From: a virus
Length of the DNA stretch: 64,000 bases
Reading direction: 5' to 3' (one strand)
IMG/VR virus record: IMGVR_UViG_3300023278_002686
Coordinates: 1 to 64,000 of that record
Below are positions 565-38,022 of the stretch, piece after piece. The notes beneath the pieces were generated by a model that worked only from the letters and a program-made list of their open reading frames with translations, ran no database searches and had not been told where the DNA came from. Each line of letters begins with the position of its first letter. Within the stretch, counting starts at the first letter, position 1. The translations under genes were made by a program, and so were the position numbers.

Positions 565-636
565 AGCTTCTTAACGGACTCGAACCGATACCTTCAGATT
601 GGAAATCTGTAATGCTGCCATTAACACCAAAGAAGC
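565..636 (-). tRNA. tRNA-Gly(UCC)
   Basis: cloverleaf, anticodon loop TTTCCAA, GGTTCGAGTCC T-arm. Confidence 0.9.
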
Positions 637-641
637 AATTT

Positions 642-727
642 TGAGACGTAATAGAATTGAACTATCTGACAACCACCACACATACATACGTCAAGAGTTT
701 TACAGACTCCCGTGTGGAATACATCTC
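642..727 (-). tRNA. non-canonical D-arm-less tRNA-Tyr(GUA)
   Basis: 8-bp acceptor GAGATGTA/TACGTCTC, A73, anticodon arm GGAGT-CTGTAAA-ACTCT, T-arm ATAG-TTCAATT-CTAT; no D hairpin. Confidence 0.75.
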
Positions 728-731
728 GTTT

Positions 732-804
732 CGGTCCATAGGAGAATTGAACTCCTGTTAAAAGATTGACAGTCTTTCGTGTTAAACCACTACACTAATG
801 AACC
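732..804 (-). tRNA. tRNA-Asp(GUC)
   Basis: cloverleaf, loop CTGTCAA. Confidence 0.9.
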
Positions 805-819
805 AATTTTTATTCTTTA

Positions 820-891
820 CAGATCGGGTAGGATTCGAACCCACAACTTTTAGATTTGGAATCTAAATTTCTTCCATTGAATTACCGATCT
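820..891 (-). tRNA. tRNA-Trp(CCA)
   Basis: cloverleaf, loop TTCCAAA. Confidence 0.9.
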
Positions 892-896
892 AAATA

Positions 897-980
897 CGGA
901 AGGTAGAGGTGTCGATCCCCCATGCTTTCACATGTACTTGCTTTCAAGGCAAGGTGTTAGTAGCCGCTAACATACCTTCC
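897..980 (-). tRNA. tRNA-Ser(UGA), possible 8/4 fold
   Basis: loop CTTGAAA, long variable arm CATG..CATG, G73, T-loop ATCGACA. Confidence 0.8.
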
Positions 981-984
981 AAAA

Positions 985-1067
985 CGGTAGGTAATGGATT
1001 CGAACCATCGCACCGTTGCCGATGTACAGTTTAGCAAACTGCTTCCTTACCACTCGGACAACCTACC
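985..1067 (-). tRNA. tRNA-Ser(GCU)
   Basis: loop TTGCTAA, long variable arm, G73. Confidence 0.9.
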
Positions 1068-1074
1068 AAATTAA

Positions 1075-1205
1075 TAGGGATAATTGGATTTGAACCAATG
1101 CGTCAAGGCCGAAATCACCTTGTTTTCTACCGTAGTTTTATTTTTTTCTCTAATTTTATGATCACTATTATAGATTTTATAAAACTATCTCTGAAATATA
1201 TCCCA
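1075..1205 (-). ncRNA. tRNA-like RNA with ~57-nt hairpin inserted in D-loop and non-standard anticodon loop
   Basis: GGGATA/TATCCC acceptor, TTTC/GAAA D-stem, CAAGG-TGATTTCGG-CCTTG arm, ATTGG-TTCAAAT-CCAAT T-arm. Confidence 0.65.
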
Positions 1206-1207
1206 CT

Positions 1208-1280
1208 TGGAGCCAGTGAGAATCGAACTCACCTCAAAAACCTTGCAAAAGTTTTTCGCCACCTTGGTACATGTGACCCC
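1208..1280 (-). tRNA. tRNA-Ala(UGC), irregular D-arm
   Basis: loop TTTGCAA, G3:U70, A73. Confidence 0.85.
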
Positions 1281-1285
1281 ATAAA

Positions 1286-1359
1286 TAGACTCGATAAGAT
1301 TCGAACTTATGACTTCCTGCATGTAAAACAGACACTCTAACCAGCTGAGTTACGAGTCT
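1286..1359 (-). tRNA. tRNA-Val(UAC)
   Basis: cloverleaf, loop TTTACAT. Confidence 0.9.
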
Positions 1360-1363
1360 AAAA

Positions 1364-1437
1364 TAGGAAGAAATGGATTTGAACCATTGACCACTTGTGT
1401 ATCAGACAAGCACTCTAACCGACTGAGTTACCTTCCT
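1364..1437 (-). tRNA. tRNA-Ile(GAU)
   Basis: cloverleaf, loop CTGATAC. Confidence 0.9.
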
Positions 1438-1441
1438 ATGC

Positions 1442-1513
1442 TGGGAGACCTGGGAATTGAACCCAGAATCACGGATTTTCAGTCCGCTCTGATACCGATT
1501 TCAGCAATCTCCC
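1442..1513 (-). tRNA. tRNA-Phe(GAA)
   Basis: cloverleaf, loop CTGAAAA. Confidence 0.9.
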
Positions 1514-1519
1514 ATTCTT

Positions 1520-1644
1520 TGGAGTAGATGAGTGTCGAACTCATGTCCTACTTTAATACATCCTTTTAAGGAACAGAAGTTTTCGATTCTTGTGCAGTTA
1601 CGTCACTTCTTATTATCTTAGTAGTCGAAACCAAATACTACCCC
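1520..1644 (-). ncRNA. ssrA: miniature tmRNA (SsrA-like), 125 nt, tag frame (A)AQESKTSVP*
   Basis: 5' GGGGTAG-TATTTGGTTTCGAC and 3' GAC-ATGAG-TTCGACA-CTCAT-CTACTCC-A match the tmRNA tRNA-like domain; G3:U70; TAACT|GCA resume context. Confidence 0.75.
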
Positions 1645-1648
1645 TATT

Positions 1649-1722
1649 TACCAGCAGAAAGATTCGAACTTTCACTGTACAGAGTCTAAGTCTGCCGCCT
1701 CTACCAATTGGGCTATGCTGGC
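1649..1722 (-). tRNA. tRNA-Leu(UAG), short variable loop
   Basis: loop CTTAGAC, A73. Confidence 0.85.
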
Positions 1723-1727
1723 ATTAA

Positions 1728-1889
1728 AAAATCAAAGTTCCCAATTCATGAATCTAGCATTGATCCATATGCCTTTCAGTATTACCTTGTTAGAATCTAT
1801 ACTGAGGATGAAGTAAGGCAAGCACATCCCCAATAACGGGATTAAATATTTCCATCGATGACCCATTATTTCATCTAAACTTTGATTTT
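1728..1889 (-). ncRNA. unknown ~162-nt rod-like structured RNA (6S-like topology?)
   Basis: perfect 12-bp terminal stem AAAATCAAAGTT/AACTTTGATTTT plus nested stems; sits between two tRNAs. Confidence 0.55.
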
Positions 1890-1891
1890 AG

Positions 1892-1964
1892 TGCAGGAGA
1901 GAGGACTTGAACCTCCAACCACATGACCCCAAATCATGTATGCTACCCATTGCAACACTCCCAC
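1892..1964 (-). tRNA. tRNA with Pro anticodon (UGG), atypical acceptor stem (G1:C72, G3:U70)
   Basis: canonical 73-nt numbering, loop TTTGGGG. Confidence 0.85.
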
Positions 1965-1972
1965 AGATAAAA

Positions 1973-2071
1973 ATTTCTATCTAAAACATTTAGGGATTAC
2001 ATTATCATACACCTTGTTTTTTCTTGGCCCATTATCCTCATCCAAGTTTAACCATCATTTTAAATAGAAAT
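1973..2071 (-). ncRNA. unknown ~99-nt stem-closed RNA
   Basis: 14-bp terminal stem ATTTCTATTTAAAA/TTTTAGATAGAAAT (one G:U), inner CTTGG/CCAAG stem. Confidence 0.45.
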
Positions 2072-2074
2072 AAT

Positions 2075-2147
2075 TACTCAGGGAGGGATTCGAACCCTCA
2101 CTGGACTGGGCTTAAACCAGATATCTCTTCCGTTGGATTACCTGAGC
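2075..2147 (-). tRNA. tRNA-Leu(UAA), short variable loop
   Basis: loop TTTAAGC, A73. Confidence 0.85.
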
Positions 2148-2153
2148 ATAAAA

Positions 2154-2225
2154 AGCTGGTGAAAGGACTTGAACCCTCAACATCTTCATTACAAGTGAAG
2201 AACTCTACCATTGAGCTACACCAGC
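2154..2225 (-). tRNA. tRNA-Thr(UGU)
   Basis: cloverleaf, loop CTTGTAA. Confidence 0.92.
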
Positions 2226-2229
2226 ATAT

Positions 2230-2300
2230 TAACAGGAGTTGGAATCGAACCAACAGAGATTGGCTTATGAGACCAATTTGAATAACCAATTCTTCCTGCT
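2230..2300 (-). tRNA. tRNA-CAU (Met or Ile2), shortened D-arm
   Basis: loop CTCATAA; D-arm GAAT-TGGTT-ATTC. Confidence 0.75.
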
Positions 2301-2305
2301 ATTAT

Positions 2306-2378
2306 TAGCTCCACAGGGAATCGAACCCTGATCTCTGGGCTGAAAACCCAACGTCATAAACCATTAGACTATGGAGCC
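2306..2378 (-). tRNA. tRNA-Glu(UUC)
   Basis: cloverleaf, loop TTTTCAG. Confidence 0.9.
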
Positions 2379-2383
2379 ACATT

Positions 2384-2629
2384 TTATTTAAAATATCTTT
2401 CAGCTCGTTCAGTCATTAATTCAACATCGTGTAAAACATCTGGATGAATTTCAATGTTAGATCCATTGTTTGCTCTACCAATAGCAATTAATCTACCTTT
2501 TTTCATATCGAATTTATCTTTTTCACTACATCGTGACCAACCTATTTGACCTACATTTGTAGCTGCAACTACTCCTATAGGTATTTTGTTTTTACGAACT
2601 CTTGATACAAGAATCTTTGTATCTTTCAT
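2384..2629 (-). CDS. conserved phage hypothetical protein
   Basis: GWS.C...D.FD...G..IA..RA motif; SD AGGAG. Confidence 0.65.
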   Translation of the reverse strand: MKDTKILVSRVRKNKIPIGVVAATNVGQIGWSRCSEKDKFDMKKGRLIAIGRANNGSNIEIHPDVLHDVELMTERAERYFK

Positions 2630-2657
2630 ATTATACTCCTTAATATAAATTTTAAAA

Positions 2658-2729
2658 CTCCTAGACTTAGACTCGAACTAAGAACAATGGATTAACAGTC
2701 CACTATGATACCGATTTCACCATCTAGGA
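2658..2729 (-). tRNA. tRNA-Asn(GUU)
   Basis: cloverleaf, loop CTGTTAA, G73. Confidence 0.9.
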
Positions 2730-2831
2730 AAGAACCTTCTCTATTATATGTCAAAGATCTAATTGATTACATCACAAGCTTATAGCTGTAATACTATCTA
2801 ATGATGGATAACCAATTAATTTACCGAATTA

Positions 2832-3138: not shown

Positions 3139-3167
3139 ATTATATATTATAGTAAAGAAAATGTCAA
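3139..3167 (-). promoter_or_regulatory. sigma70-type promoter driving the tRNA/ncRNA array
   Basis: exact TTGACA-N17-TATAAT. Confidence 0.75.
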
Positions 3168-36690: not shown

Positions 36691-38022
36691 ATGGATAAAC
36701 GATTTAAAAATGCAATGTATATATTAAAAGTACTTCAAAATAATAAACATGATGCTGTAATAGCTGGAGGATGGGTTAGAGATAAATTAATTGGAGTTCC
36801 ATCAAAAGATATAGATATAGCAACTTCAGCTAAACCCGAAGAAGTTGAAGCATTATTTGAGAAAACTATTCCTATAGGAAAAGCTTTTGGAATCATTAGT
36901 GTAATTATTAATGAAGATCAATTTGAAATAGCTACTTTTAGAAGTGACGGAAATTCCTTAGACGGAAGACATCCAGATTCCATCACTTTTTCTTCTATGG
37001 AAGAAGATGCTGAACGTAGAGATCTTACTATTAATGGCATGTTTTATGATCCTTTTCTTGATTTTGTAATAGATTTTGTAAAAGGTAAACAAGATATTAA
37101 AGATAAAGTAATTAAATTTATTGGTAATCCTAGAGAAAGAATTCAAGAAGATTATCTTAGAATGTTAAGAGCTATTAGATTTGCAATAAAATTAGATTTT
37201 AAAATGGAAAGTGATACTTTTAGGAGTATAATAGAAAATTCTAAACATATTACTAAAATTTCTTCGGAAAGAATTAAAGATGAATTAATTAAAATGTTTA
37301 GATTAGGAAAACCTAGAAATACTTTATATTTATTATCTTTTTGTCTTTTATTAGAAGAAATATTAATTGAAGTATACATACTAAAATTTTGTGATCAAAA
37401 TCCAGGATGGCATCCAGAAGGAAATGTATGGGAACATACTATAATTGCTATGGAAAATATTTTTAAAAATAATGAAAATCCTTCAGATGAATTAATTTGG
37501 GCAACTCTCTTACATGATATTGGAAAACCAACTACTCAAACTGTAGAAGATGGTGTAATTAGAAGTCATGGTCATGCTAAAGAAGGTGCTGATATAGCTA
37601 GAAAAATTCTTAAAAGATTAAAGTTTTCTAATGATTTTATTGAAAAAGTAACTCGACTTATATATGATCATATGGGTGTTAAAGAAATAAAAAAGATGAA
37701 AAAATCTACATTTAGAAAATATTTAGCTAAACCTTATATTGAGGATCTTATAAAATTAGCATTTGCTGATAGTCAGGCTTGCGGTATTAAAAGTCATACT
37801 AAATGGTATAATACTTATTTAGAAAGAAAAGAAAAATTAAGTAATGAAGTAATAGAAATTTTACCTTCATGCTTTGTTAATGGAAATGATTTAATACGTT
37901 TAGGGTTTAAACCAGGACCTAAGTTTAAAAAAATATTAGGTGAAATTATGGAACTTCAATTAAATGAAGAAATAAAATGTAAAGATGATGCTATAAACTA
38001 TATAAAAAAAATAAAGGAGTAA
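36691..38022 (+). CDS. cca: CCA-adding tRNA nucleotidyltransferase with HD domain
   Basis: GGWVRD, DIDIAT, RRDLTIN, EDYLRMLRA, HPEG.VWEHT, LLHDIGK. Confidence 0.92.
   Translation: MDKRFKNAMYILKVLQNNKHDAVIAGGWVRDKLIGVPSKDIDIATSAKPEEVEALFEKTIPIGKAFGIISVIINEDQFEIATFRSDGNSLDGRHPDSITFSSMEEDAERRDLTINGMFYDPFLDFVIDFVKGKQDIKDKVIKFIGNPRERIQEDYLRMLRAIRFAIKLDFKMESDTFRSIIENSKHITKISSERIKDELIKMFRLGKPRNTLYLLSFCLLLEEILIEVYILKFCDQNPGWHPEGNVWEHTIIAMENIFKNNENPSDELIWATLLHDIGKPTTQTVEDGVIRSHGHAKEGADIARKILKRLKFSNDFIEKVTRLIYDHMGVKEIKKMKKSTFRKYLAKPYIEDLIKLAFADSQACGIKSHTKWYNTYLERKEKLSNEVIEILPSCFVNGNDLIRLGFKPGPKFKKILGEIMELQLNEEIKCKDDAINYIKKIKE

Follow-up and report, generated by a model that had tools for sequence, protein, structure and literature searches.

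The window, the whole stretch of 64,000 nucleotides of phage DNA analysed here, carries at positions 1644 to 1520 (minus strand) a genuine gene for a 125-nt miniature tmRNA (mini-tmRNA) without pseudoknots. tmRNAs are normally about 350 nt long, and their pseudoknot ring is treated as part of message loading into the ribosome. Since the small RNA keeps an alanine-accepting end and a restart site and the pseudoknots are absent, it probably competes with the rescue and tagging system of the host. The reading preferred here, that the mini-tmRNA is a competitor of host tmRNA-SmpB which spares stalled products from the host degradation tag, is judged to have about an even chance of being correct. 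Phage tmRNAs are known, including one form that consists of the tRNA-like domain (TLD) only, and the RNA of the window is a different, intermediate architecture. As a conserved 125-nt form with a TLD, a stub of helix 2, a resume site and a hairpin resembling helix 5, it tests what a tmRNA minimally needs.

Identification of the mini-tmRNA gene

The gene occupies 1520..1644 on the minus strand, so that RNA position n corresponds to window position 1645-n. An earlier note on this DNA had described both halves of a TLD with G3:U70 around a small interior. Both halves are present, and the domain is complete (G3:U70, A73, GGUUUCGAC, GGAC and the T arm) and encloses 75 nt. The Rfam tmRNA model RF00023 aligns to the RNA end to end (model positions 1-374), with 51 nt standing for 296 interior model positions and with the helices P2 and P3 falling on helix 2. 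The earlier assignment to tmRNA is thus supported by a near-threshold match (45.1 bits, E 6.7e-17), although the score lies 1.9 bits below the RF00023 gathering score (47). The gene was not reported by an Rfam scan at the gathering threshold, and ARAGORN called 14 tRNAs around it but none over 1520-1644. For annotation this means that ARAGORN overlooks mini-tmRNA genes and that the window copy is just below the Rfam cut-off.

Searched as one pattern, the two TLD halves match the window a single time and give no match in 100 shuffles. The covariance model R1, which was built from the subfamily of the window RNA, scores that RNA at 135 bits. The anticodon arm is absent and neither ARAGORN nor Rfam calls a tRNA over 1520-1644, so the gene does not encode a canonical tRNA-Ala. 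A two-piece (permuted) tmRNA was considered and rejected: the corresponding model (RF04321) gave a partial match to the 3' half only (9.1 bits, E 6), and the gene is colinear. No match to Rfam mt-tmRNA was among those listed at E values up to 10 or 1.

Homologues and covariation

Patterns describing the TLD only, with the interior left free, were scanned over IMG/VR, JGI metagenomes and GTDB genomes and yielded two clear homologues, L025:1968-1845 and L019:856-733. A pattern for the interior added L028:6320-6446, from a complete 146.5-kb phage, and L029:608-483, from a complete 168-kb phage. Other pattern scans of IMG/VR, including ones free of stop and frame, returned only L028 and L029, random matches and members of other subfamilies. 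The RF00023 cut-off of 47 is passed by L025 (61.7 bits), L019 (57.8 bits) and L029 (52.9 bits) and is failed by L028. The DNA polymerase of the L028 phage is 43% identical to that of the window and the L029 phage has no polymerase match, which places the RNA in at least two phage lineages.

In the alignment of the five sequences (A2), 95.8% of the cells are paired, compared to 41-46% when the partners are slid. Compensatory (two-sided) change is seen in 19 of the 34 pairs, none of 500 shuffles attains the observed score, and all six helices (acceptor stem, P2, P3, P4, P5 and T arm) are supported by covariation. Energy-based folding of the single sequence says little (z = -1.4 over the full RNA, with the interior no better than shuffles). 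RNAalifold paired the T arm wrongly with the UUCGAC block, and for this reason the tmRNA-type structure was supplied by hand and tested by pair counts.

These counts bear on the origin of the locus. The 3' end of ssrA is often duplicated in phage attachment sites, and the gene could in principle be such a site copying the ssrA of the host, a decaying remnant of a captured ssrA or a chance look-alike. On one metagenome contig (L016), an ssrA of the E. coli type does carry an internal deletion of similar size. However, 19 compensatory pairs, spread over five contigs and at least two phage lineages, leave a remnant or a chance resemblance close to refuted, and the absence of the TLD pattern from shuffles also speaks against chance. 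Both TLD halves are intact, the gene is packed between tRNAs, and no integrase, as would suit an attachment site, was found in the 92%-complete phage genome. Origins of this kind are very improbable.

Secondary structure

The acceptor stem is formed by GGGGUAG (1638..1644, minus strand as for all elements that follow; G3 at 1642) and CUACUCC (1521-1527), the latter followed by the discriminator A (1520) to give a 3' element at 1520..1527 with no encoded CCA. Its seven pairs are 100% paired, with compensatory change at two of them; both G3:U and the terminal A are found in all five homologues. The tmRNA-type replacement of the D arm, UAUUUGGUUUCGA (1625..1637), aligns to the Rfam consensus cuGGaUUCGAC. 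The D-loop substitute reads UAUUUGGUUUCGA-C, the block that stands in place of the D arm is UAUUUGGUUUCGAC, and GGUUUCGAC is invariant within the subfamily. The T arm (AUGAG / UUCGACA / CUCAU, 5 bp, 1528..1544) is preceded by GGAC.

The interior begins with P2, in which CUACU (1620..1624) pairs with AGUAG (1548..1552); the conserved GGAC (1548-1545) begins with the last G of the 3' strand. P3, supported by the pair counts, joins GAUA (1614..1617) to UAUU (1555..1558). P2 and P3 together correspond to helix 2 of tmRNA and have nine pairs, six of them with compensatory change. P4 joins AGAAGU (1605..1610) to ACUUCU (1575..1580), with compensatory change in five of seven pairs. It closes the resume-type loop, and its 3' strand would be codons 6-7 of a putative tag. 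The last interior element is the P5 hairpin (UCCU-UAAA-AGGA, 1561..1572), which has a UAA in its loop and resembles helix 5 of tmRNA. Compensatory change is found in three of its four pairs, and UUAAAA is invariant in five of five sequences, though two of these were retrieved by a pattern containing it. The helices CUACU/AGUAG, GAUA/UAUU and AGAAGU/ACUUCU are all present, as is the hairpin that the earlier note saw over the stop, but this hairpin has 4 bp (UCCU/AGGA) rather than the 5 bp described, because 5 bp would leave a 2-nt loop where 4 bp leave UAAA.

P2-P5 and two loops fully occupy the 75-nt interior, and the ring formed by PK1-PK4 is absent. A search of the unpaired columns for conserved complementarity of the pseudoknot type, at least 4 nt long, gave nothing besides the invariant, self-complementary UCGA, in agreement with the earlier note, which saw no pseudoknot ring. 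The RNA has in common with bacterial tmRNA (RF00023) the G3:U70 pair, A73, GG-UUCGAC in place of the D arm, GGAC, the T arm and helix 2, as well as a single-stranded resume-type site with U-5 A-4 before GCN and a hairpin with a stop in its loop. It differs from bacterial tmRNA, which is about 350-370 nt long, in its 125 nt, the loss of PK1-PK4 and a helix 2 of about 9 bp. Further, its putative tag ends in VP instead of an Ala-Ala degron, and the phage that carries it has no SmpB.

Resume-type loop and putative tag frame

The apical loop (CG-UAACUGCACAAGAAU-CG, 1584..1602) carries the motif GACG..rAAr..GCN CAn..CGAAA of the wider family, with GCA (1595-1593) as the putative resume codon. In the window, U-5, A-4 and A-3 followed by C and U precede GCA. 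The order U-5 A-4 A-3 N N before GCA is found in four of the five subfamily members, and L019 has GGAAG before GCC. SmpB sets the frame of tmRNA: its Tyr55 stacks on A86 (position -4), and position -5 is preferably a pyrimidine and position -3 a purine (PMC8363625). A86 is a key determinant in vivo (PMC2481249). As far as sequence can tell, the putative resume context of the window matches the published rule for SmpB Tyr55/Tyr24 (PMC8363625, PMC2481249), and its description as typical in the earlier note was sound.

The frame that would start at this codon, GCA CAA GAA UCG AAA ACU UCU GUU CCU UAA (1595-1566), reads AQESKTSVP, as the earlier note had claimed. Exactly nine sense codons followed by UAA in the P5 loop (1566..1595 in the window) are found in four of the five homologues, one of them L019 despite its differing loop. 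In E. coli tmRNA, helix 5 holds the stop codons, and the layout of the putative UAA in the P5 loop mirrors, by analogy, a bacterial message with its helix 5. Conservation of the frame, which the earlier note had set as a test, gives a divided result: it does not extend to L028, in which a 1-nt insertion after GCA makes the frame miss the hairpin UAA and run for 16 codons to a UAG in P2, nor to the peptide, the sequence of which is not conserved (AQESKTSVP, APESKVLVD, ALAPKVPVD and AHVTKFFVP). The four peptides have few residues in common beyond those forced by the RNA blocks CGAAA and UGU. First and second codon positions change in step with the helix covariation, and there is no pattern of a coding type. 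The putative tags end in VP, VD, VD and VP, with no hydrophobic or Ala-Ala degron, so that if the frame is read the tag lacks a degron-type end as had been proposed. In the window RNA, 13 codons can be read in the +1 frame before a stop, and the +2 frame runs to the end of the RNA without meeting one; the open frame of this RNA is therefore not special.

One way to read these features is that the mini-tmRNA is a complete minimal template for trans-translation, with translation resuming at GCA (1595-1593) and ending after nine codons at UAA (1568-1566). A-AQESKTSVP would in that case form the end of stalled chains, and ribosomes would be recycled while the product is not sent to ClpXP-type proteolysis. 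This reading is tentative and is held at well under an even chance. The resume context and the nine codons with UAA are each kept in four of the five members, and the hairpin that holds the UAA in its loop covaries. Conservation is qualified, however, by the frame shift in L028, by peptides that differ and by substitutions that follow the helices instead of codon positions. Two of the five sequences also came from a pattern containing the UUAAAA loop, other frames are open too, and in an RNA of 38% GC an in-frame stop is expected by chance.

Size and folding can likewise be argued in both directions. The putative tag is close to the commonest length of 10 aa (PMC11915505), and tmRNAs with 2-aa tags and tag-less organelle forms are known (PMC11915505). 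The pseudoknots of E. coli tmRNA can be replaced without loss of tagging (PMC2481249), which was counted in favour of tagging. With -7 to -14 kcal/mol, no better than shuffles, the interior helices have little stability and can thus be melted, as tagging would require. The normal tmRNA ring around the 30S beak, however, measures 81 x 97 A and has a circumference of about 280 A (PMC8363625), whereas the loop closed by P2 has only 65 nt and could probably circle the beak only with P3-P5 fully unfolded. That a natural, pseudoknot-free tmRNA of 125 nt carries out complete trans-translation with host SmpB and adds the 10-residue non-degradation tag A-AQESKTSVP is rather unlikely. If full tagging is true, the phage has a rescue system of its own that recycles ribosomes and spares the product, and the RNA is the smallest working tmRNA known.

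A wider family of mini-tmRNAs

The TLD-only patterns found about 30 distinct mini-tmRNAs of 104-133 nt in IMG/VR, JGI metagenomes and GTDB genomes, most of which exceed the RF00023 cut-off. A full-text literature search on mini and TLD-only tmRNAs found no description of phage mini-tmRNAs as a class. By position matrix and R1 alignment, about 24 of 31 mini-tmRNAs, among them L002:3371-3475, L027:10762-10868, L034:1120-1223 and L068:179-258, share the loop motif GACG-rAAr-GCN-CAn...CGAAA, which is located at RNA position 43-55. The window RNA resembles other phage mini-tmRNAs of 104-133 nt (such as L002, L034, L027, L058, L059, L001, L012 and L031) in its TLD, its P2 and its motif-bearing hairpin loop. 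In these the motif lies at the same distance from the 5' end, and the gene is often beside tRNA genes. The forms differ in the rest of the interior: those of 104-108 nt lack P3 and P5, whereas in the GC-rich forms of 116-123 nt there is a second hairpin, the loop of which is UUUAC or UUCAC, and a stop is missing. The window RNA ties mini-tmRNAs to large phages with their own sets of tRNAs and, in the window phage, a CCA-adding enzyme.

No in-frame stop precedes the 3' end in 17 of the approximately 24 motif-bearing mini-tmRNAs, among them every GC-rich form and all but one (L002) of the five forms of 104-108 nt. Because stop-less members keep the motif, it is under selection independently of a closed frame, and their number counts against full tagging. 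The C-A after GCN is conserved in the family motif as well, and a tag would not need it. The motif of L027 and L002 also reads as a direct repeat of ACGAAAG.

Full-TLD genes of 108-133 nt also occur on contigs binned to bacteria, both Anaerolineae (the MAGs L039, L046, L054 and L057) and reduced-genome lineages of the CPR, the candidate phyla radiation (the Saccharibacteria MAGs L043 and L049 and the Uhrbacteria MAG L041). They may belong to prophages or to phage contigs placed in the wrong bin, or they may be reduced tmRNAs of the cells themselves. The E. coli-type ssrA with an internal deletion (L016:6088-6219, plus strand, on a 100-kb metagenome contig) has 132 nt left. The deletion joins helix 2/PK1 to the 3' part and is either real or an assembly artefact. 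A phage contig that also has a mini-tmRNA contains a match to the Pistol ribozyme (L032:10932-11017, minus strand; 39.5 bits, cut-off 34.5).

The closest relative of the window RNA in the literature is the TLD-only tmRNA of the Mycobacterium phage DS6A, which lacks a CDS and is the only published case of its kind with an experiment (PMC4131195, PMC11915505). R1 detects this RNA (JN698994, 28478-28557) with 44.4 bits and an E value of 8.7e-13, and its only loop, of 20 nt, carries a remnant of the family motif, GACGAAAA-CCG-CAC. The match and the remnant together indicate that the DS6A RNA belongs to the same family and has lost GCN. Both RNAs are borne by phages and share the tRNA-like domain and the loop motif, intact or as a remnant. 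The DS6A RNA is 80 nt long and has one helix, one loop, CCG in place of GCN and no closed frame, whereas the interior of the window RNA, 75 nt long, adds three covarying helices and contains an intact U-A-A/GCA site and an in-frame UAA. After DS6A, the only published phage example, the window RNA is a second and more message-like architecture. Tag-less organelle tmRNAs (those of jakobid mitochondria and plastid forms of about 65 bp; PMC11915505) are likewise extreme reductions that keep the tRNA-like domain. Unlike the window RNA they are organellar and not viral, and neither a resume-type loop nor a closed frame is reported in them (PMC11915505).

Proposed competition with host tmRNA-SmpB

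How the mini-tmRNA may compete with host tmRNA can be outlined from its parts. tRNA-processing enzymes would cut it from the array transcript, and a CCA end would then be added, for which the phage supplies its own CCA-adding-type enzyme. Host AlaRS would charge it with alanine through G3:U70 and A73. Since the phage encodes no SmpB, the charged RNA would bind that of the host. In a complex with SmpB and EF-Tu of the host, Ala-mini-tmRNA would be a rival of host tmRNA for both SmpB and stalled ribosomes. Its loop with U-5 A-4 A-3 / GCA may dock on SmpB as a normal resume site does and so provide a second contact. Such a competitor or decoy goes beyond the bare tRNA-like domain, and translation of the nine codons to UAA is not assumed. 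The most likely net effect would be that stalled nascent chains of the infected cell escape the host tag for proteolysis.

Competition has a precedent in a DS6A-like TLD-only RNA, which was a strong inhibitor of tmRNA when studied in E. coli (Mao et al. 2009, as described in PMC4131195 and PMC11915505), but that experiment, as summarized in these two papers, used a different RNA in E. coli. The phage lacks SmpB, and the stop-less relatives (17 of about 24 with the motif) suggest that a finished tag is not needed. The motif rAAr(n) before GCN, present in about 24 of 31 mini-tmRNAs, fits the SmpB rule for positions -5, -4 and -3 (PMC8363625, PMC2481249). A plain decoy would need the TLD alone, yet P3, P4 and P5 are kept by compensatory change, and in four of the five members a conserved hairpin has an in-frame UAA in its loop, which looks like a working message with its helix 5. 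If host tagging is indeed blocked or replaced, control of ribosome rescue is one more route by which phages take over translation. It could matter when nucleases of the host or phage yield many broken mRNAs.

The tRNA array and phage context

The record containing the window is a 155-kb IMG/VR phage that is 92% complete, and the window has 25% GC. The gene lies in an array of 14 canonical tRNAs called by ARAGORN (565..2730, minus strand), 3-4 nt downstream of tRNA-Leu(UAG) and 6 nt upstream of tRNA-Phe. A candidate promoter upstream of the array (3139..3167, minus strand) matches the sigma-70 consensus perfectly (TTGACA-17-TATAAT), the assignment being by consensus match only. None of the 14 tRNAs encodes CCA, and neither does the mini-tmRNA gene. 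Among the phage proteins is a nucleotidyltransferase of the CCA-adding type that has an HD domain (443 aa, 36691..38022, plus strand; PF01743, 127 bits); its best NCBIfam match is CCA tRNA nucleotidyltransferase, under the equivalog cut-offs. Judged from these matches, the enzyme likely matures or repairs the 3' ends of the CCA-less tRNAs and of the mini-tmRNA. With a closely packed, CCA-less array and such an enzyme, release of the mini-tmRNA and addition of CCA would seem to be well prepared for.

A gene for SmpB was found neither in the window phage nor in the two complete phages that carry homologues, and the 92%-complete genome yielded no integrase. No defence or counter-defence gene was found adjoining the mini-tmRNA, and no link to any defence system was seen. 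The proposal of the earlier note, that the RNA may rescue ribosomes with no degradation of the product or may titrate SmpB and so counter host defences that cleave RNA, is a reasonable hypothesis. Megablast of 20 kb of the phage against GenBank phages gave no match, and blastn of the mini-tmRNA region against the same phages matched tRNAs only. The best relatives of the DNA polymerase adjoining the array are at most 47% identical. At four loci with polymerase relatives (L004-L007), neither a tRNA array nor a mini-tmRNA was found beside the polymerase. In two of them (L004:6533-9019 and L005:5149-7258), the polymerase relatives are followed downstream by a tRNA-repair pair, made up of a kinase/phosphatase of the PNKP type and an RNA ligase of the T4 Rnl1 type. 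A search for the Rnl1 family gave no match in the window phage, but none in any control genome either.

Three of the five copies of the mini-tmRNA adjoin tRNA genes on the same strand. In L025, the mini-tmRNA (1845-1968, minus strand) starts 6 nt after the stop of a CCA-adding-type gene (L025:1975-3222, minus strand), the product of which (415 aa, PF01743) is 27% identical to the window enzyme. Six relatives of this gene were looked up and DNA was available for four; none of the four has the RNA, so that the adjacency is not kept. These surroundings could point to a tRNA-shaped RNA that acts outside ribosome rescue, for example as a decoy for a host nuclease or sensor directed at tRNA or tmRNA, or in the regulation of AlaRS or the CCA-adding enzyme. 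The phage devotes genes to supplying tRNAs and to maturing or repairing their 3' ends, its array also holds several non-canonical tRNA-like genes, and the L025 homologue is 6 nt downstream of its CCA-adding-type gene. Such a role is nevertheless improbable, as the kept features are those that tmRNA uses for AlaRS, for SmpB and for placement of the resume codon, no defence or counter-defence gene adjoins the mini-tmRNA, and the four relatives do not keep the neighbourhood of the CCA gene.

In the L028 phage, a 116-nt tRNA called by Rfam (L028:7683-7798, plus strand) may contain an intron or a long insert, and the homologue of the DNA polymerase (G001:C1:63521-66016, minus strand) has one in-frame TAA. 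In the window array, gaps at 1728-1889, 1075-1205, 642-727 and 898-979 (minus strand) are the size of a tRNA or larger; no tool makes a call there and R1 scores are weak. A 73-nt tRNA-like gene without annotation (1208-1280, minus strand) lies between tRNA-Ser and tRNA-Val. It has an acceptor stem of GGGGUCA/UGGCUCC with G3:U70 and A73, an anticodon loop UU-UGC-AA (Ala), a normal T arm and a defective D arm, and it scores 23.7 bits with the Rfam tRNA model (cut-off 29) and 26.6 bits with R1, with no call by ARAGORN. The tRNA called Pro(UGG) (1892-1964, minus strand) has an alanine-type acceptor end (G1:C72, U2:G71, G3:U70 and A73). Acceptor stems of the AlaRS type are therefore found three times in the array: in the mini-tmRNA, in Pro(UGG) at 1892-1964 and in the Ala-like gene at 1208-1280.
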